Of a DNA stretch of 54,183 nucleotides, positions 2,517 through 54,183 are shown one piece after another. This DNA is from a virus. Numbering within the stretch: position 1 is the first letter of the stretch; each line of letters starts with the position of its first letter. Made by a program: the position numbers and the translations under genes. The notes under the pieces were generated by a model. That model saw only the letters and a list, made by a program, of their open reading frames with translations, was not told where the DNA came from and ran no database searches. The stretch spans positions 1 to 54,183 of the IMG/VR virus record IMGVR_UViG_3300048906_000028; one strand, 5' to 3'.

Positions 2517-2705
2517 ATGACCAAGACCCAACTCAAGAACAAAGTCGACGCGATTTTCGCCGAGATTGACGTCCACACCGACCTAACCCCCGCGCAGCGC
2601 GCCGCGTACCGCCGCGAGGTGGCCGCCCTCCTGGCCAACGCCCTGGAAGTGGTGCACAACGCCGTCCCGGCCGTCAGCAAAAAATTCCGCAAGACCGCCA
2701 AGTAA
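2517..2705 (+). CDS. Hypothetical protein (62 aa)
   Basis: The internal ATG of ORF 2442..2705 lies just after the ATAGAGAATAGAGAG leader box. Confidence 0.6.
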   Translation: MTKTQLKNKVDAIFAEIDVHTDLTPAQRAAYRREVAALLANALEVVHNAVPAVSKKFRKTAK

Positions 2706-2706
2706 A

Positions 2707-2758
2707 CCATTCTGATGATGGCCAGCGGGGGCTGGCCGAAACGCTCCGGCGTCAATGG
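2707..2758 (+). ncRNA. Hammerhead ribozyme, type I (candidate)
   Basis: CCAUU-CUGAUGA-(U)-GGCCAGC[GGGG]GCUGGCC-GAA-ACGC[UCCG]GCGU-C/AAUGG. All core nucleotides are present. The predicted cut follows C2753 (GUC). Confidence 0.75.
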
Positions 2759-2779
2759 ACCCTAACTTTGGAGAATAGA

Positions 2780-3517
2780 ATGAACAACGCATCCGAGAAA
2801 ATCATCGAGCGCATCCGCCAACTTCTGGCCATGGCCGCCGATGTGTCCTCCCCGCACGAGGCGTCGATTGCCGCAGGCCGCGCCCGCAAGCTGATGGACC
2901 AGCACCAAATCGCGCTGGAGGACATCAAGGACGAATCTACCGGATTCGGTTACGTGAAGGTCGACAAGGCCTACCGCTTCATGCCTAAATGGAAGGACAT
3001 TTTGTGCGTGGCCATCGCCAAGCTGAATGATTGCAAAAGCATCAAAGCGCACGAGTACAAAGTACAGGGCAGTAAGTCCTACGCTTACCGCCTGATGTTC
3101 CAGGGGTTCGAAACTGATGTGGCCCTGGCCGCCCACATGTACAACTACCTGATCGGAACCATTGAGCGGTTGTGCGCCGCCCACATGCGCTCCCTGAACC
3201 TGGGTGCATCGCTTACCAAGGTGTCCGACGCCTACAAGAAGGGCGCGGCCGTGGAAATGTGCGCCAGACTGCGCGCCATTCTGGCCGCCAGGACTGCAGA
3301 GGTCAAGACCTCAACCGGTTCATCGTTGGTTGTATTCAAAATGGCGCAGGTTGAGGCCGAATTCGGCGCGGCCAAATATACCAACACCAAGCTGGTTACG
3401 CGCAAGGACGCACTGACCCTCCAGGCACAGGCCAAGGGCCGCGAGGACGCCAAGAAAATCGGCCTCGATACCCAAATCGGTGATCCTGACCGCGACCCGG
3501 CCGCCCAGGTGGCCTAA
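2780..3517 (+). CDS. DUF2786-like protein (245 aa)
   Basis: The N-terminus KIIERIRQLLAMAADVSSPHEASIAAGRARKLMDQHQI matches the DUF2786 signature from memory. ATG 2780 follows GGAGAATAGA. Confidence 0.65.
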   Translation: MNNASEKIIERIRQLLAMAADVSSPHEASIAAGRARKLMDQHQIALEDIKDESTGFGYVKVDKAYRFMPKWKDILCVAIAKLNDCKSIKAHEYKVQGSKSYAYRLMFQGFETDVALAAHMYNYLIGTIERLCAAHMRSLNLGASLTKVSDAYKKGAAVEMCARLRAILAARTAEVKTSTGSSLVVFKMAQVEAEFGAAKYTNTKLVTRKDALTLQAQAKGREDAKKIGLDTQIGDPDRDPAAQVA

Positions 3518-3539
3518 CCCGTATCAACCCGCGCTCCCC

Positions 3540-3568
3540 TTGCACCGGGGGCGCGGCCGTGTTCTAAT
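3540..3568 (+). promoter_or_regulatory. Class I promoter variant, TTGCAC-N17-TCTAAT
   Basis: Arms CCGCGCTCCCC (3529-3539) and GGGGGCGCGG (3547-3556) form a hairpin. Its 7-nt loop is TTGCACC. CCGTGTTCTAAT follows. Confidence 0.5.
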
Positions 3569-3612
3569 AGCAATATCGCGCTCGGGAGTCGGGTGCGAAC
3601 CCCATAGAGGAT

Positions 3613-3915
3613 ATGATGAAGACCTTAACCTACGCCGCCACCACCTGGGATTCCACCACGGGTGAAGCACACCCGGCCAGTGTGACCATTCTCACGGCCC
3701 CCGGCCCCATCATGATGGAACTGGTGGCCTATACCACCCACGCAGGGCTGTGCATCGAGGCCGATGAAAACCCATCTGATTGGCAGTTGATCGCCGTGCA
3801 CGGTGACTCGCAGGCCTTCGTGTCGGTGTGGAGGCATGTCGACAGCCAGACCCTGTCGACCGAGAATTGCGTACTGATCCCATCCGCCGAGGACATCGGG
3901 TTCAAGAAGTCCTAA
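3613..3915 (+). CDS. Hypothetical protein (100 aa)
   Basis: ORF after the CCCATAGAGGATATG leader, with tandem ATGs at 3613 and 3616. Confidence 0.65.
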   Translation: MMKTLTYAATTWDSTTGEAHPASVTILTAPGPIMMELVAYTTHAGLCIEADENPSDWQLIAVHGDSQAFVSVWRHVDSQTLSTENCVLIPSAEDIGFKKS

Positions 3916-3917
3916 CC

Positions 3918-4349
3918 ATGCCTACCTACTCGCTCCGCTGCCGCCTGAACGCCTGCCGCCATCGTCGGGTGGCCACCACCCACCCCGATGACTTGACGCG
4001 CCGCGTGCGCTGCCCGTCCTGCAAGGGCTTCCACGGGTGGCGGATCGAGCAACGCCATTACAACCGCCGCCAACTTTGTAACTGCAGCGGCCCCGAAATG
4101 ACCCAGGCGCAGGGCAAGAATTTCCCGCACCGTAGGCACCACCCACTTTGCGACAATAACCCCTGGTCCCATTATAACAAGGCTGTAGTCCTGGGCGTTC
4201 CGCCCGGGTATGCTCTGGGATTGCGCCAGGAGCGCCGAACTGTCGATCGACCCGTACTTATTGAAAGGAGAAAACCCGCCATCCTGGTTTGGCCTACCGA
4301 CATCTTTGGGGGTCGGCGCATGTTGCCCGATGAACCCTGCCCATTTTAA
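3918..4349 (+). CDS. Cys/His-rich (zinc-ribbon-like) hypothetical protein (143 aa)
   Basis: ATG 3918 lies 2 nt after the upstream stop. Motifs CRLNACRH, CPSCKG and CNCSG. The 5' extension to 3828 overlaps the previous gene. Confidence 0.6.
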   Translation: MPTYSLRCRLNACRHRRVATTHPDDLTRRVRCPSCKGFHGWRIEQRHYNRRQLCNCSGPEMTQAQGKNFPHRRHHPLCDNNPWSHYNKAVVLGVPPGYALGLRQERRTVDRPVLIERRKPAILVWPTDIFGGRRMLPDEPCPF

Positions 4350-4351
4350 CT
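4323..4351 (+). promoter_or_regulatory. Possible weak class I promoter, TTGCCC-N16/17-TTTAAC
   Basis: It lies at the 3' end of the upstream gene, directly before the TATAGAGAATAGAGG leader of gene 4373. Confidence 0.3.
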
Positions 4352-4372
4352 TATAGAGAATAGAGGTATATC

Positions 4373-4744
4373 ATGAAGACCAACACTTTTACCGAGGTAC
4401 TGTCCACCATCAACGACGCCGAAGACGCAGCTTCCCGCGCCTCTAGCGCCCTCCAGATGGCCCGTGAAGAAATGGTCGAACGCTTTTCGCCCTGGCAGGT
4501 GGGCGAGACCGCTACCCAAACGATTGGCGGGGTTAAGGTGACCATTAAAGTAACGAATGTCCAGGTGGCCAAGTCCGGCCGTCACGGGCACAAATTCGTG
4601 GCCACTGGCGACCGCATTACCGACGATGGTGTCGAAACCGCTGAACGCATGACCCTGGAAGCGGAAATCAATGAATCCTTGGCCGACCGCGCCGCCCCCG
4701 CCACCCGCAAGGGTACAAAGGGGGCTGCCAGCAAGGCTAAGTAA
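4373..4744 (+). CDS. Hypothetical protein (123 aa)
   Basis: ORF after the leader box. No recognisable domain. Confidence 0.7.
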   Translation: MKTNTFTEVLSTINDAEDAASRASSALQMAREEMVERFSPWQVGETATQTIGGVKVTIKVTNVQVAKSGRHGHKFVATGDRITDDGVETAERMTLEAEINESLADRAAPATRKGTKGAASKAK

Positions 4745-4776
4745 GCCCTCGGGGGCCTTCGGACGCGCTCGCCGCT

Positions 4777-5043
4777 ATGTTGGCCCCTACTGACCCTCAA
4801 GAAAGTCACGGAGATACCCTCCGTGCAGCCGGAGACCCCTTGAAAGCACGTACCCTCAAGCGCCAGCGCGACCGCAACGTCGCCGAAACCGCCCGCCGCA
4901 TGTTCCCGCCCTATCGCGAGTTCCACGAAGTGTCCGGTGAGACCTACTGCGCCAAAATCTCCATGCACCTGCGCGACTCTTTGGCGATGCTGGCTACCAC
5001 CAAATCCCTCGCAGCCCATATCCGAAACCACCTGAAAGCCTGA
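4777..5043 (+). CDS. Doubtful ORF (88 aa). If real, the true start may be TTG near 4840.
   Basis: The 5' half overlaps a degenerate GTACC-box repeat. The 3' half (KRQRDRNVAETARRMFPPYREFHEV...) looks protein-like and ends 1 nt before the next ATG. Confidence 0.3.
   Translation: MLAPTDPQESHGDTLRAAGDPLKARTLKRQRDRNVAETARRMFPPYREFHEVSGETYCAKISMHLRDSLAMLATTKSLAAHIRNHLKA
4798..4836 (+). repeat. Degenerate copy of the GTACC box
   Basis: caagaaagtCACGGAGataccCTCCGTGcagccggagac shares the ...CTCCGTGCAGCCGGAG end with the other copies and has a 7-bp internal inverted repeat. Confidence 0.4.
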
Positions 5044-5044
5044 A

Positions 5045-5743
5045 ATGAAAGCAATCATTTTTGACACCGAAACCACCGGCCGCGAATCGTCGACCGTCAT
5101 CGAAGCCGCCCACATGTATGTGCACCTGGACGGCGGCACCCTGGTCCGCGCCCTTCCCCCCTACCTGCAACGCTTCGACCCGGCCCCGATCCAGATCGAA
5201 TGGGGCGCACTGGCTACGCATCACATCTTGCCGCATGAACTGGAACATATGCCAGCATCGGCTGACTTCCAGATCCCTGACGATGTCAAATTCATTATCG
5301 GCCACAACGTCGATTTCGATTGGACAGTCGCGGGTTCCCCCGATGTGCAGCGCATCTGTACGCTGGCGCTGTCCCGCTGGCTCTGGCCGGACCTGGACGC
5401 GCACAACCAGTCGGCCCTGTACTACTGGATCAAGCAAGATGATCTGGCTGGCGCTCGCGAAGTTCTGCGCAACGCCCACTCCGCCGCCGTCGATATTCAA
5501 ATTTGCGCCGATATCCTTTTGTACGAAATTGCCACGATCCGCCAGCGTGGTTATGTATGTGACACATGGGCGCAGTTGTGGCTGCTGTCCGAAAAGGCCC
5601 GCATCCCGACCGTTATGGGCTTCGGCAAGCACAAAGGCGAGAAGATCGCGGACATCCCGGCCAGTTACAAGTCCTGGATGCTCAAACAAGAAGAAGTGGA
5701 CCCGTACTTGCGAATCGCACTGCAGGGCGGGGTGATGAAATGA
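5045..5743 (+). CDS. DnaQ-like DEDDh 3'-5' exonuclease (ExoX-like)
   Basis: FDTETTG (Exo I), IGHNVDFDW (Exo II) and HSAAVDIQICAD (Exo III, H-x4-D). The C-terminal KHKGEKIADIPASYKSWML resembles the ExoX-like C-terminal motif. Confidence 0.8.
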   Translation: MKAIIFDTETTGRESSTVIEAAHMYVHLDGGTLVRALPPYLQRFDPAPIQIEWGALATHHILPHELEHMPASADFQIPDDVKFIIGHNVDFDWTVAGSPDVQRICTLALSRWLWPDLDAHNQSALYYWIKQDDLAGAREVLRNAHSAAVDIQICADILLYEIATIRQRGYVCDTWAQLWLLSEKARIPTVMGFGKHKGEKIADIPASYKSWMLKQEEVDPYLRIALQGGVMK

Positions 5744-6177
5744 CCAAATTGGAAACGCGCACCAAATCCAAAGTCGCGAACCGCCTGTACGACAGCCCCG
5801 CACGCAACGAGGTCATCGCAGTCCTGCGGGAACACAAACGGATGACCTCGCAAGAAATCGCGGACCTGTTGGGCCGCAAGGCCTGCACGGTGAACCAAAC
5901 GATCATGCGCACCCGCGCCGCGAAGCCGGGCGGCCGGAAATGGTTCCGCATCGCTGCCTGGGGGCGTAACGTCGACTCCAATATGGGCCACATTGCAATG
6001 ATTTGGGAAATTTCGGAGCTTGCCGACAAGCGACGGCCGCCGCCAGCCGGTCCCAAGGTGATCCAGGCCCGGTATTACCAGAAGCGCAAGGCCGTACTCA
6101 ACCTGCGCCACAAGGCCCGATCCGGCCAGCCTATCAATCACTGGCTTGTGGCCCTGGCCCCGGGAGCGCGATTGTGA
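5740..6177 (+). CDS. Winged-helix DNA-binding protein (145 aa)
   Basis: ATG 5740 overlaps the upstream stop (ATGA). VIAVLREHKRMTSQEIADLLGRKACTVNQTIMR looks like a helix-turn-helix. Confidence 0.6.
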   Translation: MTKLETRTKSKVANRLYDSPARNEVIAVLREHKRMTSQEIADLLGRKACTVNQTIMRTRAAKPGGRKWFRIAAWGRNVDSNMGHIAMIWEISELADKRRPPPAGPKVIQARYYQKRKAVLNLRHKARSGQPINHWLVALAPGARL

Positions 6178-6422
6178 ATTTTAATCATATCGCCTACGTG
6201 CATGAACTGTCGACCCGCCTGCGGGAGGTCAACAAGCAATCCAGGCGGGTTTATTTGGTATGTCTATCGGACTCGGCCAAAACGGAGTTCAGTTCTTCCG
6301 CCTCCGATGCTGGCTTGCAGGCGGCGCGCAAGGCCATTAGCGCCCATCTCATGGCCGAGCGTATCCTGATTATCGAACGCCTGGCACAGTACGGCGTAAC
6401 TTTTGACGAGGAGGAAGGGTGA
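6174..6422 (+). CDS. Hypothetical protein (82 aa)
   Basis: GTG 6174 overlaps the upstream stop (GTGA). Confidence 0.5.
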   Translation: MNFNHIAYVHELSTRLREVNKQSRRVYLVCLSDSAKTEFSSSASDAGLQAARKAISAHLMAERILIIERLAQYGVTFDEEEG

Positions 6423-6655
6423 GCAACATTAAAGAGGTGGACTTCTCGCAGAAGCCTGATGTGTCGTTGATAACCACTCTCCGCAATATGCTAGCGCTGG
6501 CTGAACGCGGCCAATTAGTTAAGCTGGTGGCCATTTACCAGGCCAGCGATAAAAACGTTATCGTGCGCAACGCCAGCCTCAACGACAGCCTTGTCATGAG
6601 CAGCCTTTTAAAAGAACAAATTTTACGGGAGTTTTTCGATGGCGACCAAGCCTGA
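6419..6655 (+). CDS. Hypothetical protein (78 aa)
   Basis: GTG 6419 overlaps the upstream stop (GTGA). Confidence 0.55.
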   Translation: MSNIKEVDFSQKPDVSLITTLRNMLALAERGQLVKLVAIYQASDKNVIVRNASLNDSLVMSSLLKEQILREFFDGDQA

Positions 6656-7076
6656 ACAGAAGATGTGGGATTACATATCCGATAAGATGCGCGGCCGGTG
6701 GAATGCGCAGCGCCACGAAGATGAACTATCCAACTCGGTCCCGGATGTATCGTACGGCATACGCGGCCGTGATGGGTGGATCGAGTTGAAGACCATTGAA
6801 GCCTGGCCCAAGCGCGAATCCACCAAGATCAACCTGCCGCACCTCCGGCCGGGACAGGTTAACTGGATCGAAGACCGCGCCAGGAATGGCAACGGCCGTT
6901 GCTGGTTGCTGCTGATGGTGGGCGCAACTCCGGGCGACGCCGAGTGGCTCCTGTTTCCACCCGACCACGTGCGGGCGGTTTACAACCGGGCCTGGAACCG
7001 CGAGCAAATGTTGGGCAATTGCCTCCATTGTCGGTCCAGCGCCAGCCTGGAGCATTTTCTGATGGCCAACCTGTGA
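6639..7076 (+). CDS. PD-(D/E)xK nuclease, VRR-NUC-like (tentative)
   Basis: VPDVSY...GWIELKT fits a D...E-x-K core. 145 aa. Confidence 0.55.
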   Translation: MATKPEQKMWDYISDKMRGRWNAQRHEDELSNSVPDVSYGIRGRDGWIELKTIEAWPKRESTKINLPHLRPGQVNWIEDRARNGNGRCWLLLMVGATPGDAEWLLFPPDHVRAVYNRAWNREQMLGNCLHCRSSASLEHFLMANL

Positions 7077-7121
7077 TTGTTGTGCCTTTGCAACGCCACG
7101 CGCCCGCGACAAAGGTAATTA

Positions 7122-7150
7122 TTGCAAAGGCGGGCGCGGCGTGTTTTAAT
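7122..7150 (+). promoter_or_regulatory. Class I promoter, TTGCAA-N17-TTTAAT
   Basis: -35 at 7122-7127 and -10 at 7145-7150. Arms 7097-7107 and 7130-7143 are complementary. GTGCCTTTGCAAC box at 7082-7094. Confidence 0.6.
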
Positions 7151-7197
7151 ATAGGTTCGGTAGTTCCGAAGAACCCATAGAGAATAGAGAGAATACC

Positions 7198-7470
7198 ATG
7201 ATCAACGCAAACGGCCAACACACCAACCCTGACTTCAACATCGTCCAGGCCCCAGGCAACTGCAACCCCAAATTCATCGTGATTCGCGGCCAGCGCACCA
7301 ATTCGGGCCACGCCGCTCCAGGCAGCGAGGCAATCTCGGTCCCGATGTCCCGTGACGAGGCAATCACCCACGCCGACCAACTGCAGGCCGACCACGACCG
7401 CAAAGCCGCCCGCCAAGCGGCAGTCAAGAGGATGGCTGCGGGTGTGGCCGGTAAGGCTTTTAACAAGTGA
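7198..7470 (+). CDS. Hypothetical protein (90 aa)
   Basis: ORF after the CCCATAGAGAATAGAGAG leader. Confidence 0.65.
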   Translation: MINANGQHTNPDFNIVQAPGNCNPKFIVIRGQRTNSGHAAPGSEAISVPMSRDEAITHADQLQADHDRKAARQAAVKRMAAGVAGKAFNK

Positions 7471-7523
7471 CCATTCTGACGAGGCCAGCGGGGGCTGGCC
7501 GAAACGCCCAAGGGCGTCAATGG
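7471..7523 (+). ncRNA. Hammerhead ribozyme, type I (candidate), second copy
   Basis: CCAUU-CUGACGA-GGCCAGC[GGGG]GCUGGCC-GAA-ACGCC[CAAG]GGCGU-C/AAUGG. The predicted cut follows C7518. Stem III co-varies with the copy at 2707. Confidence 0.75.
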
Positions 7524-7545
7524 ACCCTAACTTATGGAGAACGCC

Positions 7546-7866
7546 ATGACCCGTACTACCGAAGAACTGAAATTCGCTGCGAGCGCCGCGCTCGACAAGT
7601 GGATTGACAGCAACGATGACGCCGACTTCCAAGCATGGGAAGCCATCATCCGCGAACTGCGCGATACGCTGATGATCACGAACCGCGTGTACGAGGTCGA
7701 CGGCCGCCGCTGGCTGATCGAAACGGCCGTGAACCTGGCCAAGGCCGAAGAGGCTATCGCGATGGCCCGCTGCACAGGCTCCATTGGCGCTACCCTCCAG
7801 GAGACGCGGGATGGCGTCACGCACACCCTGGCGGTGGTGTCGCGCCTGCCAGGGGACGAATCGTGA
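7546..7866 (+). CDS. Hypothetical protein (106 aa)
   Basis: ATG 7546 was chosen by analogy with gene 2780 (same spacing after the ribozyme). ATG 7534 is an alternative. Confidence 0.6.
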   Translation: MTRTTEELKFAASAALDKWIDSNDDADFQAWEAIIRELRDTLMITNRVYEVDGRRWLIETAVNLAKAEEAIAMARCTGSIGATLQETRDGVTHTLAVVSRLPGDES

Positions 7867-8009: not shown

Positions 8010-8032
8010 CGATTTCCCCGAGGAACGGCCCA

Positions 8033-8041
8033 TGGTATAAT
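8033..8041 (+). promoter_or_regulatory. Extended -10 promoter element, TGGTATAAT
   Basis: catGGTATAAT lies 47 nt upstream of ATG 8088. No good -35 was seen. Confidence 0.45.
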
Positions 8042-8087
8042 GCCGGTGGGTCCACTCCCCACACATAGCGAATATAGGAAAAGAACA

Positions 8088-8330
8088 ATGAAGAAGCTGC
8101 AAAAGCTGTCCCGCCGCATCCGCGCCGCCTATCATAACCTCCAGGCCCGCGCTTACCTGCGCGCTGCCCGTGCCGCCCGCCAGAATTCCATGGACTGGTT
8201 CAGCAAATCGTCCGATGCACAACAACGCTTCCGTGCCCTGACCGCCTGGAACGCCGCCCGCGACCTGGAAGAGGTGGCCCGCGACCACATGAACCGCGCC
8301 GAATTCCTCAGCCGCCCCACCTGGAACTGA
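8088..8330 (+). CDS. Hypothetical basic protein (80 aa)
   Basis: Internal ATG after the CATAGCGAATATAGG leader variant. Confidence 0.6.
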   Translation: MKKLQKLSRRIRAAYHNLQARAYLRAARAARQNSMDWFSKSSDAQQRFRALTAWNAARDLEEVARDHMNRAEFLSRPTWN

Positions 8331-10684: not shown

Positions 10685-10752
10685 TCTAAGCGTTTAACGT
10701 CTCCGAGGCCTTCGGATGGTCCTAGGCTATACAAGCCCGTGCTGAACCGTCC

Positions 10753-10786
10753 GAAGGCCAGGAAAGTACCTCCCGTGCAGCCGGGA
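10753..10786 (+). repeat. GTACC box copy
   Basis: gaaggccaGGAAAGTACCTCCCGTGCAGCCGGGA, 19 nt upstream of ATG 10805. Confidence 0.7.
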
Positions 10787-13622: not shown

Positions 13623-13721
13623 CCCCCGTTCATGTAACAGGCGTAACAGGCCTATATACACGCATATATACACGGAAGAACGCCCGTCCTTACGGGGCTT
13701 CTTGCCCTCTGTGTGGTCTTC

Positions 13722-13985
13722 ATTTACGCGTAAGGGGGACGAACCTGTCGCTGCAGCGACACATTAGCGCCGGAGAGGGGTACACGACTACACACGAAAT
13801 ATTCGACTCCAAAGAACGCCCGTAAGGACGGTACTTCCCTTGAAGCTTGGGCCGTGTATATCGATATACACAAAATAGCCCTCAGACTGTCACACCTACA
13901 CGCGCACTACACAAAATGCAACCCACTCCACCCCTAACGTGTGCTAACGGAGAGGAGGTTGTCAAGGGTGGTAGGCTTTTCGGGC
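13722..13985 (+). repeat. Noncoding paralog A (homologous to 43085..43309)
   Basis: Shared blocks: TTACGCGTA, CGGAG(A)GGGGTACACGACTACACACG, AGAACGCCCGT, GTGTATATYGATATACAC, CTAACGTGTGCT and GTTGTCAAGRGTGGTMGGCTTT. Confidence 0.75.
13854..13871. promoter_or_regulatory. Perfect 18-bp palindrome GTGTATATCGATATACAC (operator- or iteron-like)
   Basis: Read directly. The paralogous copy at 43216..43233 differs only at the centre. Confidence 0.6.
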
Positions 13986-18853: not shown

Positions 18854-18893
18854 TCGCGAAGCTACTGATATAGCCGAGGGCTTATCAGAGCGC

Positions 18894-18920
18894 AAGGAAA
18901 GTACCTCCCGTGCGGCAGGA
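18894..18920 (+). repeat. GTACC box copy
   Basis: AAGGAAAGTACCTCCCGTGCGGCAGGA lies in the gap before the scaffold gene. Confidence 0.7.
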
Positions 18921-41383: not shown

Positions 41384-41910
41384 TTAACAAAATCGGAATC
41401 GAAACCCTTATCGCGGTGGTGATGGGGATCATCTTGTTTGCCTTGGGCGCGACCCTGGGCAGCCGTCACGTACAGTCGAAATGGGACCATGAAAAGTTGG
41501 TACAGTCCCAGGCCATCAATCAGGCAGTGGGCAATCGCCTGCAGGAGAACGCCAACCTAGCCGCCGAGCAAGGCGCTGCCAAGGAATTGAACCGCAAGGA
41601 GATTAAAGATGAAAACGCTGCAATTGATGCTGTTACTCATGATTCTGCAAGGCTGCGCATCCCCGCAAGTGCTTGTCCAGGACCTACCCCCGCCACCAAA
41701 ACCGCAAGCGCCAGCGGAGGCGTTCATATCCCTGCCGGAGCCTGGCCACTTCTCGAAGTGCCTGCGGCAAATCCTATCGGGGAATCAAGCATCGAACTGC
41801 CCACCGACATCGACGCCGCCCTGAAAAACAAGGCTGAATTCTCGGACAGGATCGTGGCATCATGCCGGGGCCTCCAAAAGTTCGTCCGGGACAACGGAAT
41901 GGCCCCGTAG
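41380..41910 (+). CDS. i-spanin (Rz-like)
   Basis: N-terminal transmembrane segment, coiled-coil body, follows the endolysin, and contains the embedded lipoprotein ORF. Confidence 0.7.
   Translation: MINKIGIETLIAVVMGIILFALGATLGSRHVQSKWDHEKLVQSQAINQAVGNRLQENANLAAEQGAAKELNRKEIKDENAAIDAVTHDSARLRIPASACPGPTPATKTASASGGVHIPAGAWPLLEVPAANPIGESSIELPTDIDAALKNKAEFSDRIVASCRGLQKFVRDNGMAP
41609..41824 (+). CDS. o-spanin (Rz1-like lipoprotein), embedded in the +1 frame
   Basis: MKTLQLMLLLMILQGC has a lipobox (LQGC). The mature part is Pro-rich. The ORF lies wholly inside 41380..41910. Confidence 0.7.
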   Translation: MKTLQLMLLLMILQGCASPQVLVQDLPPPPKPQAPAEAFISLPEPGHFSKCLRQILSGNQASNCPPTSTPP

Positions 41911-41939
41911 TGCCTTTGCAACGCCAGTAAGCGCGATTA

Positions 41940-41969
41940 TTGACAAACCTTTTCGCCTTATGTTTTAAT
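41940..41969 (+). promoter_or_regulatory. Class I promoter, TTGACA-N18-TTTAAT
   Basis: -35 at 41940-41945 and -10 at 41964-41969. GTGCCTTTGCAAC box at 41910-41922. A strong leader hairpin GGTCTCG...CGAGACC follows. Confidence 0.55.
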
Positions 41970-42034
41970 AGGTCTCGGTCGTCACGACGAGACCTAAACC
42001 CCATAGAGAATAAACCCGCGAAAAGGAATTTAAA

Positions 42035-42874
42035 ATGAACATCACCCTGAAAGCTATCATCGCTTCCGGCGCAATTGTTTCTGTTCAATCCGTCAATGGT
42101 GGCTGGTCGACCGTGGCGGAGCAAGTACCCTCCGGCCCGGATGCGGGCACCTTCGGCAAACCGATGAAGGTGCGCAATTCGACGCTGCGCGACCTGACCG
42201 AAGTGGAAATGGCTATCCAAAACGCCCCCGCTCCGAAACCCGGCAAAAAGCCGAACCGGGCGGCAGCATCGGCAGCCCGCAAAACCGAGACCCAAGCCAA
42301 AGAGCAGCTGCGCAAGCTCCTGAACCCCGGCAAACCCGCCAAGGCCGAGAAGCCCGTCAAGGCCCCTAAGGTCACGAAGCCCGCCAAGACGCGCCGCGAC
42401 CCGGTATCCGCCCGCCCCGAATCGGACGATGTTCTCAACCCCGATGGCTCCGCCTTCGTGGCATCCGACAAGCTGGTGAAGCCCGATTATGACCGCTACA
42501 CCAAGCACGAAATCAAGTCCCCGTCCGGCCGCAAAGCCCTGGATGTCAACGATGAAGCGGCCAACCTGTTGCGCGGCCAGGATATCGCGGACTGCTATTT
42601 CATCACCGCCAAGAATATCGCCAAGACCTCCGGCGAGAACCCGGAAGATGTTGAAGCGGCGCTCAAGGAGAAGTACAAAAACTTGAACGTGGGCATGCAG
42701 CGCATGAATCTGGGCAACCGCCTGCGCAAGGCTCTGGGCACCTACGGCAACCGCAATGCCCACAAAGGTGAACGCTCGACCGACACCGGGGATGGCGCAT
42801 CGGCTCCCAAGTACGGTAAGCGTGCTGGCGAGCAATTGAAGCGTGCCAGCGACCCCGCGCAACCAGCAGCGTGA
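42035..42874 (+). CDS. Lys/Pro/Ala-rich basic protein (279 aa), possibly DNA-binding
   Basis: Central KPGKKPNR...GKPAKAEKPVKAPKVTKPAKT tract. It has its own promoter and a terminator. Confidence 0.7.
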   Translation: MNITLKAIIASGAIVSVQSVNGGWSTVAEQVPSGPDAGTFGKPMKVRNSTLRDLTEVEMAIQNAPAPKPGKKPNRAAASAARKTETQAKEQLRKLLNPGKPAKAEKPVKAPKVTKPAKTRRDPVSARPESDDVLNPDGSAFVASDKLVKPDYDRYTKHEIKSPSGRKALDVNDEAANLLRGQDIADCYFITAKNIAKTSGENPEDVEAALKEKYKNLNVGMQRMNLGNRLRKALGTYGNRNAHKGERSTDTGDGASAPKYGKRAGEQLKRASDPAQPAA

Positions 42875-42948: not shown

Positions 42949-42986
42949 GGCTATTTCCCGCTACTTACATAGCCAGCGCATCGTCG

Positions 42987-43020
42987 GAAGGCCAGGAGAG
43001 TACCTCCCGTGCGGCCGGAG
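42987..43020 (+). repeat. GTACC box copy
   Basis: gaaggccaGGAGAGTACCTCCCGTGCGGCCGGAG. Confidence 0.7.
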
Positions 43021-43084: not shown

Positions 43085-43309
43085 GATTACGCGTACGGAC
43101 ACGCGGACAGTCCTAGCGACAAGCGACAATATCCCGGAGGGGGTACACGACTACACACGGCCCACACTCCAGGCCAGAACGCCCGTCCTTGCGGGGCTTC
43201 TTGGTAGTCGAACCCGTGTATATTGATATACACAGAACACTACACGGCTGTCACATCACCTAACGTGTGCTGATCTCTCAGATGTTGTCAAGAGTGGTCG
43301 GCTTTCGGG
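43085..43309 (+). repeat. Noncoding paralog B (homologous to 13722..13985)
   Basis: Carries the same ordered blocks as region A (see feature 13722..13985). Confidence 0.75.
43216..43233. promoter_or_regulatory. Near-palindrome GTGTATATTGATATACAC
   Basis: Paralog of 13854..13871. Only the 2 central bases break the symmetry. Confidence 0.6.
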
Positions 43310-43387: not shown

Positions 43388-44947
43388 GTGAATCAAACAA
43401 GCTTGCAGCGTTTCATGGCTTTATTTCGTGGCAATCCGAGGTCTTTCGGGCAGTGGAACCCAAGGGAACCTGACCCCAACCGCTCCTCGGTTACGGAGAA
43501 GAGCGCATACACCACCCGGGAATTCGAGCGGCATCTTAAAGGCATCTTCGGCATCGGTATCGTCCCTATTCTGGATGATGCCTCGTGTTTATGGGGCGCA
43601 ATTGATATCGACAATCATGGCCAGTCGGAAGATTCCGACATTGCGGCCATCGAGCAGCGGGTGCTGGCGTTAAATTTGCCGCTGGTACCATGTCGATCGA
43701 AGTCGGGTGGCGTGCACCTGTTCTTGTTCGGCCGGGAACCCTTGCGTGCGGCACAGGTGCATTCAGTGTTGAAGAAGTGGGCGAAGGACTTGAAGGTCGA
43801 AGGTGTGGACTGCATCTTCCCCAAACAATCCAGGCTTGAATTCAATAATGAGGGCGGGCGCGCACTCGGCAACTGGATTAACCTTCCATACTTCGATGCT
43901 GAGAAAACCAAGCGTTACGCGGTCATCAACAATGAGCCGCAGCCGCTTGAATTGTTCTTGACCGAGGCCGAGTCCAAAGCAGTTACTGCGCACCAGTTGG
44001 ATCAGCTGTACAACAACGAACATTCGGAAGCGCCGCCATGCATCGCGGCGATGATCACCGATGGCGTAGATTCGGGATCGCGCAACGACGCCGCATATAA
44101 CGTCACAATTTATATGAAGAAGAAGTTCCCGGAGGACTACCGGGACCGGCTTTACGATATGAATGGCCAGATTTTCAAGGAACCACTGCCATTTAATGAA
44201 ATGAAAAAGGTAGTAATGTCGGCCTCGCGGCGTGACTACCGTTACCGCTGCAGCACTGAGCCTTGTAAATCGCTTTGTGACCGCAAAACCTGCCTCACCC
44301 GCAAATTCGGCATCACCCAGGACCAGTCCGACGAAATGGACATGGAATTCGAGGTACCGGCACTTACTGACCTGGTGAAGTACAACACTAATCCGGTGCG
44401 GTGGGAAATGACCTGCGAGGGCATCCGCATCGTCGTGTCGACCGAAGAATTGTTTGAGTGGCGCGTGCTGCGATTGAAATTGGCCGAGCGCCTGCTGCGC
44501 GTGCCGCCGATGATTAAGAATGATAAGTGGCAGAAAATCCTTAAAACGATGATGGCCACGTGCCGTATTGAAGAAGCGCCAGAAGATGCATCCGTGGATG
44601 GTATCATCAAGGGCCAGCTTATTGACTTCCTGCGCAAGTGCGACCTCAACTCGCCCGGTACCGACACGGCCGAGCGCAAGGCTCTGTACCGTGGCATCCC
44701 GGTGGTACAGGTGGACGACACCGACACGCGGCATGTATATTTCCGTGGCGCGGACTTCGTGCAGCACCTCAAGCGAAACAAGACCGAAGAAATGAAGGGC
44801 GTCAATTTGTGGTTCGTGCTTAAGCAGTTGGGCGTCAACCACGGCCGCTTCCGCGTAGAAGACAAAACCCCTTCTGTGTGGTCGGTTGAGCTTACCGATG
44901 AACACCAACTTAAAATGTCAGTCCCCGACTTCACCCCGGAAATCTAA
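43388..44947 (+). CDS. Primase-polymerase (Prim-Pol) with a PriCT-like C-terminal region
   Basis: WGAIDIDNHG and SKSGGVHLFLF match the AEP catalytic motifs. GSRNDAAYNVTIY matches PriCT. GTG start lies after GGAGG. Confidence 0.75.
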   Translation: MNQTSLQRFMALFRGNPRSFGQWNPREPDPNRSSVTEKSAYTTREFERHLKGIFGIGIVPILDDASCLWGAIDIDNHGQSEDSDIAAIEQRVLALNLPLVPCRSKSGGVHLFLFGREPLRAAQVHSVLKKWAKDLKVEGVDCIFPKQSRLEFNNEGGRALGNWINLPYFDAEKTKRYAVINNEPQPLELFLTEAESKAVTAHQLDQLYNNEHSEAPPCIAAMITDGVDSGSRNDAAYNVTIYMKKKFPEDYRDRLYDMNGQIFKEPLPFNEMKKVVMSASRRDYRYRCSTEPCKSLCDRKTCLTRKFGITQDQSDEMDMEFEVPALTDLVKYNTNPVRWEMTCEGIRIVVSTEELFEWRVLRLKLAERLLRVPPMIKNDKWQKILKTMMATCRIEEAPEDASVDGIIKGQLIDFLRKCDLNSPGTDTAERKALYRGIPVVQVDDTDTRHVYFRGADFVQHLKRNKTEEMKGVNLWFVLKQLGVNHGRFRVEDKTPSVWSVELTDEHQLKMSVPDFTPEI

Positions 44948-53926: not shown

Positions 53927-54183
53927 ATGAGCATCGACCAACGAAGCGAAGCCCGCGAAGACGTTAAATCCGTAACCCTCGCACGCCTGCAGTCCCTGGT
54001 GTTCGGCCAGGCCAACGTGCTTTTCCCGAAACGCACCCAGTCCAAAGCCTTTCTCAAGCTGTACGAGGAACTGGGCGAAGTGATCAAGAACCCGTCCGAC
54101 CCCCTGGAATGGGCAGACGTTTTTATCATGCTGCTGGACCTGTCGAAGATGAACAACATCGATGTGGTGTCCGCGATCCTGCA
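53927..54183 (+). CDS. mazZ: MazG-like NTP pyrophosphohydrolase, 5' part (continues at nt 128 of the window after removal of the 127-bp overlap; ends at 278)
   Basis: ATG 53927. The frame is open to the contig end and in phase with ORF 24..278. Confidence 0.7.
   Translation, partial: MSIDQRSEAREDVKSVTLARLQSLVFGQANVLFPKRTQSKAFLKLYEELGEVIKNPSDPLEWADVFIMLLDLSKMNNIDVVSAIL
54057..54183. repeat. Terminal overlap, copy 2
   Basis: Identical to 1..127. Confidence 0.9.

Follow-up and report, generated by a model that had tools for sequence, protein, structure and literature searches.

The DNA analysed here, called the window throughout, is the whole 54,183-nucleotide (nt) stretch of IMG/VR virus record IMGVR_UViG_3300048906_000028 and represents a complete phage genome. 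Positions 7471–7523 of its plus strand probably encode an active, pseudoknot-stabilised type I hammerhead ribozyme that processes an early-operon messenger RNA (mRNA), a reading to which we give a probability of about three in four. A second hammerhead (copy 1) is found at 2707–2758; both copies lie on the plus (coding) strand of the early region, 4.76 kilobases (kb) apart. The role suggested by the sequence is likely to be constitutive processing of the operon mRNA. The element at 7471–7523 (copy 2) is composed as follows.

7471–7523, plus strand: hammerhead copy 2, of type I (loops close stems II and III, and stem I is open), 53 bases, found with a structural descriptor and with a covariance model (model R2)
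7471–7475, plus strand: 5′ strand of stem I, CCAUU, beginning directly after the stop codon of the upstream open reading frame (ORF) and pairing with 7519–7523
7476–7482, plus strand: core positions C3 to A9, CUGACGA, in which N7 is C, fitting the consensus criteria of PMC3088659
7483–7500, plus strand: stem II, 7 base pairs (bp), GGCCAGC (7483–7489) with GCUGGCC (7494–7500)
7490–7493, plus strand: loop II, GGGG
7501–7503, plus strand: core positions G12, A13 and A14 (GAA)
7504–7517, plus strand: stem III, 5 bp, ACGCC (7504–7508) with GGCGU (7513–7517), loop CAAG (7509–7512)
A7504/U7517, plus strand: A15.1–U16.1 pair
7518–7519, plus strand: predicted cleavage site, C17 (7518) followed by A1.1 (7519), placed from the hammerhead consensus
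7519–7523, plus strand: 3′ strand of stem I, AAUGG
7524–7533, plus strand: conserved flank ACCCUAACUU
7525–7528, plus strand: putative pseudoknot partner CCCU within the flank, pairing with loop II GGGG (7490–7493)

Copy 2 has the CUGANGA core, the GAA trinucleotide, the A15.1–U16.1 pair, an H17 and three helices (5, 7 and 5 bp), and the pairs adjoining the core are intact: G7483–C7500 (10.1–11.1), A7519–U7475 (1.1–2.1) and A7504–U7517 (15.1–16.1). Position 17 is a C in both copies (C7518 in copy 2, C2753 in copy 1). All sequence-level hallmarks of the hammerhead class are present, and cleavage is predicted. Minimum free energy (MFE) folding recovers stems I–III of copy 1 and, in copy 2, stems I and II and most of stem III; the fold z-scores are modest (−1.0 to −2.5), as is usual for such a small motif.

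The equivalent features of copy 1 are as follows.

2707–2758, plus strand: hammerhead copy 1, with CUGAUGA (2712–2718) and an extra U after A9, found with the descriptor and with model R2
Within 2707–2758, plus strand: stem III ACGC/GCGU with loop UCCG; predicted cut after C2753
2760–2763, plus strand: putative pseudoknot partner CCCU

A preliminary description of this DNA had reported that the hammerhead architecture recurs after the TGA of the gene at 7198–7470, and every coordinate and base that it gave is correct; the 5′ end it expected for the downstream product, A7519, agrees with the position predicted from the hammerhead consensus. Alignment of the copies confirms that N7 is C in copy 2 and U in copy 1, that copy 2 lacks the extra U found after A9 in copy 1, and that stems I and II and the flank are conserved. 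The copies are paralogues of about 90% identity, which differ only at N7, in the insertion after A9, and in the tip and loop of stem III. Stem I and the flank are identical, the pseudoknot partner is present in both, and ribozyme and ribosome-binding site together form a duplicated 70-nt module. The extra U presumably lies between A9 and G10.1. The changes in stem III had been called compensatory. The stem does differ and does remain paired, but its four shared pairs are identical and the difference comes down to one additional C–G pair in copy 2 and the loop. Covariation between the copies had also been taken as an argument for selection on RNA structure; this argument falls, as there is no compensatory double change, and two paralogues that are about 90% identical cannot show selection on structure.

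To match the descriptor, a site needed CUGANGA with or without one further base, GAAA, an H17 and three stems: stem I of 3–5 bp, stem II with a minimum of 4 bp, and stem III with a minimum of 3 bp and an A–U closing pair. Searched on both strands, it matches exactly two sites in the window, copies 1 and 2, both on the plus strand. Three hundred dinucleotide-preserving shuffles, also searched on both strands, yielded no match, even when a stem I of 3 bp was accepted. Model R2, built from marine-phage hammerheads alone, scores 48.8 bits for copy 1 and 48.0 bits for copy 2 on the 54-kb window (E approximately 2–3 × 10−8). A weak third match to the model (43556–43619; 9.5–11.3 bits, E 6–8) has no stem III and was rejected. 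Rfam, applied to the whole window, reported nothing at gathering score and only chance-level matches at E up to 5, with no other ribozyme class and no transfer RNA (tRNA).

Relatives of the two copies were sought in IMG/VR, a metagenome collection and GTDB genomes with patterns that fixed stem I and the core and left stems II and III free; a covariance model then added copies with a differing stem I. This yielded approximately 18 distinct related hammerheads on AT-rich marine phage contigs bearing 2–5 copies each (L004 from IMG/VR; L014, L015, L017, L018, L022, L024, L026, L028 and L029 from TARA and ENA metagenomes). Like the window copies, the marine type I hammerheads have a 5-bp stem I of CCAUU/AAUGG, a stem II of 6–7 bp and a pseudoknot in the same register; they too are closely preceded by a stop codon and closely followed by a ribosome-binding site, and the extra U after A9 is frequent among them, occurring in most copies. 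The common stem I is not independent evidence, since the retrieval pattern fixed it. Unlike the window copies, they belong to AT-rich genomes, differ in their stem II, stem III and pseudoknot sequences, and show no evident gene similarity to the phage described here. The four copies of L004 are packed in this way: between the stop codon and stem I there are 1–4 nt, and AGGAGG or GGAGG comes 11–27 nt past stem I. None of the marine contigs tested against Rfam (L004, L015, L017 and L029) reached the gathering score. Exact stem II and flank patterns of the window copies found nothing in IMG/VR, and therefore no close relative of the two copies was found; protein-seeded searches for IMG/VR loci with both downstream genes also returned nothing.

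Selection on RNA structure becomes apparent from the sequences only once these marine-phage relatives are included. Across 20 distinct sequences, with stems I–III aligned by fitting to the covariance model, 99.2% of pair cells hold standard pairs, and both sides have changed in 11 of 19 pairs. As a control, the 3′ partners were slid by 1–3 columns, which lowers pairing to 18–51%. Covariation is seen at five of six aligned pairs in stem II and two of four in stem III; in stem I, one family member has a compensatory CUAUU/AAUAG. Some relatives carry A17 instead of C17, and the two adjacent hammerheads of L017 differ from one another in stem I sequence.

The same alignment bears on whether the motif acts as DNA, or as RNA that does not cleave (a protein-binding palindrome, a recombination site, or stabilising or terminating hairpins). 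The opposite strand folds similarly (−28.2 vs. −27.5 kcal/mol), and the modest fold z-scores, here −1.8 to −2.5, would also suit such an element. We nonetheless find it scarcely credible: the asymmetric unpaired core CUGANGA…GAAA…H is conserved on the plus strand only, and in all family members this is the coding strand; covariation is confined to the stems, with none in the unpaired core. An intrinsic terminator was considered and rejected, as the bases after stems II and III are GAAACG and CAAUGG, with no T-run, and a terminator scan omits the site.

Two further sets of hammerheads have a different organisation. Three identical motifs stand in tandem with a spacing of 297 nt at L012 7114–7777, in an archaeal metagenome-assembled genome (Nitrosopumilus, CAXXLJ010000002.1), adjoining eight matches to the tRNA model, which measure approximately 102 nt and are mostly spaced by about 225 nt; at L031 363–1011, two identical hammerheads are separated by 601 nt. 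Both sets resemble hammerhead arrays of a repeat-type or satellite-like kind.

In both window copies, loop II (GGGG) is predicted to pair with the CCCU just 3′ of stem I. The corresponding interaction in the marine copies joins loop II UGGUU to the tail AACCA, two bases after stem I, and in L017 joins the loop UGAUU to the tail AAUUA. In a single alignment register, the four pseudoknot pairs are formed in 97.5% of cells vs. 14–72% when slid, and three of the four change on both sides; because the pseudoknot is absent from the covariance model, this support is independent of model fitting. The preliminary description saw that the flank ACCCUAACUU is conserved and gave no reason. The predicted pseudoknot explains it: the flank would be conserved because it holds the partner of loop II. 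The window tail may in addition be closed by a further AAGU/ACUU helix. Such an extension of stem I, drawing on the final codon and the stop codon of the upstream ORF, could form in either copy with identical sequences, and MFE folding predicts it in copy 1 only. Pseudoknots between stems I and II have been reported for approximately 40% of hammerheads, across all three types, and mutation and rescue have demonstrated that fast cleavage at 0.5 mM Mg2+ depends on them (PMC3088659).

The genes and control elements around the two copies are listed below.

7198–7470, plus strand: upstream small ORF, 90 amino acids, stop codon TGA at 7468–7470; codon-position GC 0.62/0.47/0.76, typical for the genome
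7536–7548, plus strand: ribosome-binding site GGAGAA (7536–7541) and likely start codon ATG 7546; leader after the predicted cut 27 nt
7546–7866, plus strand: downstream gene, 106 amino acids, an ORFan whose sole database match is itself
2517–2705, plus strand: small ORF before copy 1, 62 amino acids, also called by the source's gene caller
2780–3517, plus strand: gene after copy 1, DUF2786/DUF7168, phrog_421
7079–7197, plus strand: promoter-like element P3, a repeated element with leader CCCAUAGAGAAUAGAGAGAA, heading the copy 2 operon
1725–1842, 2405–2522, 7074–7203 and 41902–42040: spans of the promoter-like element, with conserved leader CCCATAGAGAATA

The flanking genes all lie on the plus strand and look coding. 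The 62- and 90-residue ORFs have no protein similarity to one another, both show coding-type codon-position G+C, and the latter has no family matches. The gap between stop codon and stem I is 0–1 nt in both window copies, and GGAGAA follows the predicted cut by 17–18 nt; in copy 1 it occupies 2770–2775, ahead of ATG 2780. The public gene call starts the gene downstream of copy 2 at ATG 7534 (110 amino acids), inside the conserved ribozyme flank. ATG 7546 appears the more likely start, the GGAGAA before it being common to copy 1.

The promoter-like element is approximately 110 nt long and occurs four times in the genome (at 1747, 2427, 7107 and 41907), with the conserved order CCTTTGCAAC, TTGCAAAGG, TGTTTTAATAG, CCCATAGAGAATAGAGAGAA and ATG. 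By its sequence it looks like a promoter. The fourth copy (41907) has a perfect TTGACA; the −10 region lacks an A at its second position, a site at which homologous elements in relatives vary, and a simple sigma-70 scan of the window did not call P3. The preliminary description had proposed a reused regulatory cassette of promoter, small ORF, ribozyme and next gene. Its recurring layout stands, with conserved non-coding parts (the promoter-like element at one end, the ribozyme and ribosome-binding site at the other) bracketing unrelated small ORFs, and its promoter is better termed promoter-like.

In the first three copies of the element, a −35-like TTGCAA lies in the loop of a hairpin with a covarying stem (CACGCGG/CCGCGTG, CACGGGGG/CCCCCGTG and CGCCACGCGCCCGC/GCGGGCGCGGCG) followed by TTTT, resembling a terminator that overlaps a promoter, and a second palindromic TTGCAA site lies upstream. 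The first promoter-like cassette (ORF 1837–2103) is followed not by a hammerhead but by a terminator-like hairpin, GGCCCGCTTCGGCGGGCC, and TCTCTTT at 2111–2128.

The motif, its non-random occurrence, the family-wide covariation of stems and pseudoknot and this gene layout are observed here; transcription through the site, cleavage and all consequences for mRNA fate are inferred. Transcription within the early operon would proceed from P3 through the 90-residue ORF, the ribozyme and the 106-residue ORF to further genes, and the ribozyme would fold during transcription and cleave its own RNA after C7518, so that A7519 becomes the first base of the 3′ product. The 5′ product would be a short monocistronic mRNA for the 90-residue ORF, with the stop codon intact and with the stem II and III hairpins and a 2′,3′-cyclic phosphate at its end. 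The 3′ product would carry the remaining operon with a 5′-OH and a fixed leader (26–27 nt over both copies) containing the ribosome-binding site. Copy 1, at 2707–2758, would do the same job after the 62-residue ORF. The expected effect is that the first cistron is uncoupled from the downstream genes in stability and 5′-end chemistry and that the downstream leader is defined. Several prophage hammerheads flanking single genes cleave in vitro and also in Escherichia coli (PMC3088659), and constitutive co-transcriptional cutting of operon RNA is the role proposed for phage hammerheads generally (PMC3088659; PMC6765202).

The position of the stop codon raises the question of whether cleavage is instead regulated. 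A ribosome that terminates on the 90-residue ORF would sit over the stem I strand CCAUU and the core CUGACGA and so unfold the ribozyme, coupling the fate of the downstream mRNA to translation of the upstream ORF. Regulated cleavage has been raised for phage hammerheads (PMC3088659), and the ribosome scheme fits the short distance between stop codon and stem I in the window copies (0–1 nt) and in the four L004 copies (1–4 nt), as well as the presence of TAA or TGA within a few bases of stem I in the aligned family, for which frame was checked in L004 only. However, the tight packing of phage genes accounts for this spacing equally well, the locus has no ligand-binding or sensor element, and a hammerhead with a pseudoknot should cut within seconds to minutes of its synthesis, probably before or between ribosome passages. 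On balance we regard regulated cleavage as unlikely, and constitutive processing as the better description of copy 2.

The presence of two copies permits a further scheme, likened to viroids and retrozymes, in which the ends of the RNA 2754–7518 (4,765 nt) would rebuild a hammerhead and be joined into a circle via the reverse reaction or an RtcB-type ligase. Stem I and the flank are identical in both copies, and hammerhead products carry ligation-ready 5′-OH and 2′,3′-cyclic phosphate ends. Spliced or circular products have been named as a possibility, but the same authors sought them in their own systems and found none (PMC3088659). Moreover, a T-run terminator-like hairpin and a promoter-like element at 7090–7165 separate the two copies, which are therefore probably on different transcripts, and the L017 neighbours, with their differing stems I, indicate that matching ends are no requirement of the family. 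Cutting and joining of this kind is in our view highly improbable.

Several observations weigh against an active ribozyme that processes the early operon. Rfam model RF00163 (Hammerhead_1) gives copy 2 only 13.9 bits (E 0.69 for the 91 nt searched), against a gathering score of 34, in an alignment that is full length (model positions 1–45) and identical in the core; copy 1 is not reported by RF00163. The pattern used to retrieve the marine relatives was derived from the window, so that ascertainment accounts for the conservation of the core and of stem I and for part of the model score. Covariation of the pseudoknot comes from two independent lineages only, the window and L017. Contigs L036–L039, fetched via four homologues of the DUF2786 protein that are 61–72% identical, contain no hammerhead when searched with the unfiltered model, with Rfam, and with a CUGANGA…GAAA scan. 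L036–L038 are syntenic with the window; the element is therefore dispensable for this type of phage, and the ribozymes are a lineage-specific addition. Nor does the cut seem to unmask the ribosome-binding site, an idea that was rejected: for copy 2 its predicted unpaired probability is 0.46–0.47 before cleavage and 0.47 after, and with accessibility unchanged no benefit to translation is evident. The corresponding values for copy 1 depend on context (0.44–0.77 before the cut and 0.79 after). A 5′-OH escapes the 5′-monophosphate-stimulated RNase E decay of proteobacteria and attracts RNase J1 in Bacillus, and the direction of any effect of the 5′-OH on stability depends on host RNases.

Some of these points could also be explained if the motif were inactive or decaying, that is, duplicated intergenic DNA with a ribosome-binding site and no cleavage, or cleavage too slow to matter. 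At approximately 90% identity, the agreement between the copies could stem from recent duplication; phage relatives manage without the element; the extra U of copy 1 lies beside the core; and Rfam scores are sub-threshold. Against this, both copies keep all invariant core positions, the three stems and the pseudoknot partner, and the differences between them are confined to N7, the tip and loop of stem III, and the position after A9, where an insertion is tolerated. Many marine copies show the same design, extra U included, and the 300 shuffles gave no chance occurrence. We consider loss of activity distinctly unlikely, and an active ribozyme remains the preferred reading.

In the relatives, the slot equivalent to copy 2 contains a small ORF and then another promoter-like element; a second promoter-like element, not a ribozyme, thus follows the first small ORF of the operon. 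This bears on the idea that the module of hammerhead and ribosome-binding site is a portable natural insulator, swapped for a terminator-plus-promoter junction, which as it stands is very unlikely. In a stronger form of the idea, the identical stem I and pseudoknot ends would permit religation of the excised RNA, producing circular or spliced mRNA; we know of no phage in which this has been shown to date.

The second class of promoter-like element, which fills in relatives the slot held by copy 2 in the window, consists of TGGTATAAT, TGGTAGAAT or TGGTACAAT followed by C(A/C)CATAG(C/A)GAA(T/C)A, and is found at 8020–8090 of the window, 13650–13730 of L036 and 12780–12840 of L037.

Positions 1–127 of the window are repeated exactly at 54057–54183, and because of this 127-bp end repeat the genome is closed or terminally redundant, with a length of 54,056 bp. 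Its G+C content is approximately 58%, and nearly every long ORF is on the plus strand. No GenBank phage has a portal protein more than 53% identical to the one encoded here, and a near-DNA search of GenBank phages with the window found no match. The same phage is represented by JGI 3300048905 contig Ga0496102_0000368 and is also present in Logan SRR35925479. The genome encodes a PurZ-like adenylosuccinate synthetase (PF00709; 52745–53854), a dATP/dGTP pyrophosphohydrolase (PF04447; 459–1007) and an HD/YfbR-like phosphohydrolase, the gene for which runs across the ends (approximately 54000–54183 joined to 1–278). This trio is typical of phages that swap adenine for 2-aminoadenine (Z genomes), and L036–L038 carry it too, together with PolA and a UvrD helicase. 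Two further repeats are present in the window. The first, of approximately 60 nt, has three copies (10726–10785, 18861–18920 and 42960–43019) with an invariant AGTACCTCCCGTGC block and an upstream GCTA…TAGC palindrome. The second is a AAGAACGCCCGTCCTTACGGGGCTTC hairpin element, also in three copies (13676–13701, 13812–13837 and 43175–43200), of which one is inverted; it may mark transcript ends.

That hammerheads lie between phage genes has been known since 2011, and the locus leaves that picture unchanged: clusters of hammerheads between phage genes, the pseudoknot, and a hammerhead near an early-gene start are all already in the literature. What is new is a previously undescribed phage with a hammerhead subgroup missed by standard annotation. 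This pseudoknotted type I subgroup, including many marine copies, falls below Rfam thresholds and thus goes unannotated. The biological role of phage hammerheads has been described as undetermined (PMC6765202), and the locus offers a test case, in which two consensus-core copies split the first small ORF from the early operon and relatives provide a comparison with and without the ribozyme. As stop codon, ribozyme and ribosome-binding site follow one another with few spare bases, the interplay of translation and ribozyme and the fate of a 5′-OH mRNA are directly testable.

Clustered hammerheads flank prophage or phage genes in Agrobacterium tumefaciens, Azorhizobium caulinodans, Clostridium scindens, PaP3 and Bcep176 (Perreault et al. 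2011, PMC3088659). The window displays the arrangement described there, at least two hammerheads of the same orientation flanking phage genes or short blocks; as in those loci, they lie between short phage operon genes and have a consensus core, and the role proposed there, cutting long phage transcripts into gene- or operon-length mRNAs, resembles the one suggested here. Those loci have no sequence relation to the present phage, in which, unlike in them, a repeated promoter-like element and then a first small ORF precede each ribozyme, and the ribozyme belongs to a duplicated 70-nt module. RF00163 shares the topology and an identical core with the window copies and differs in that its score for them is far below gathering. 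Among pseudoknotted hammerheads (PMC3088659, PMC11300833), one of which has been crystallised (PMC11300833), loop II likewise pairs with a sequence attached to stem I, which brings the two stems alongside each other. The crystallised form has this partner in the loop of an extra stem–loop (helix IV), whereas the predicted partner in the window is a single-stranded tail 1 nt after an open 5-bp stem I. HHphage, in the haloviruses HF1 and HF2, lies 13 nt before an early-gene start, and the transcript 5′ end is at most 3 nt from its cleavage site (PMC3088659). The role proposed here, making the 5′ end of the downstream early mRNA, is similar; HHphage differs in its atypical core insertion, its need for high salt and its occurrence in archaeal viruses, whereas the copies described here have a consensus core. 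A parallel also exists with RiboJ, the engineered insulator that Lou et al. reportedly presented in Nat Biotechnol in 2012, and which is said to derive from a satellite RNA ribozyme and to be followed by a designed hairpin. There, as predicted for the window copies, a self-cleaving ribozyme of hammerhead type ahead of the ribosome-binding site strips off upstream RNA and leaves a fixed leader with a 5′-OH.

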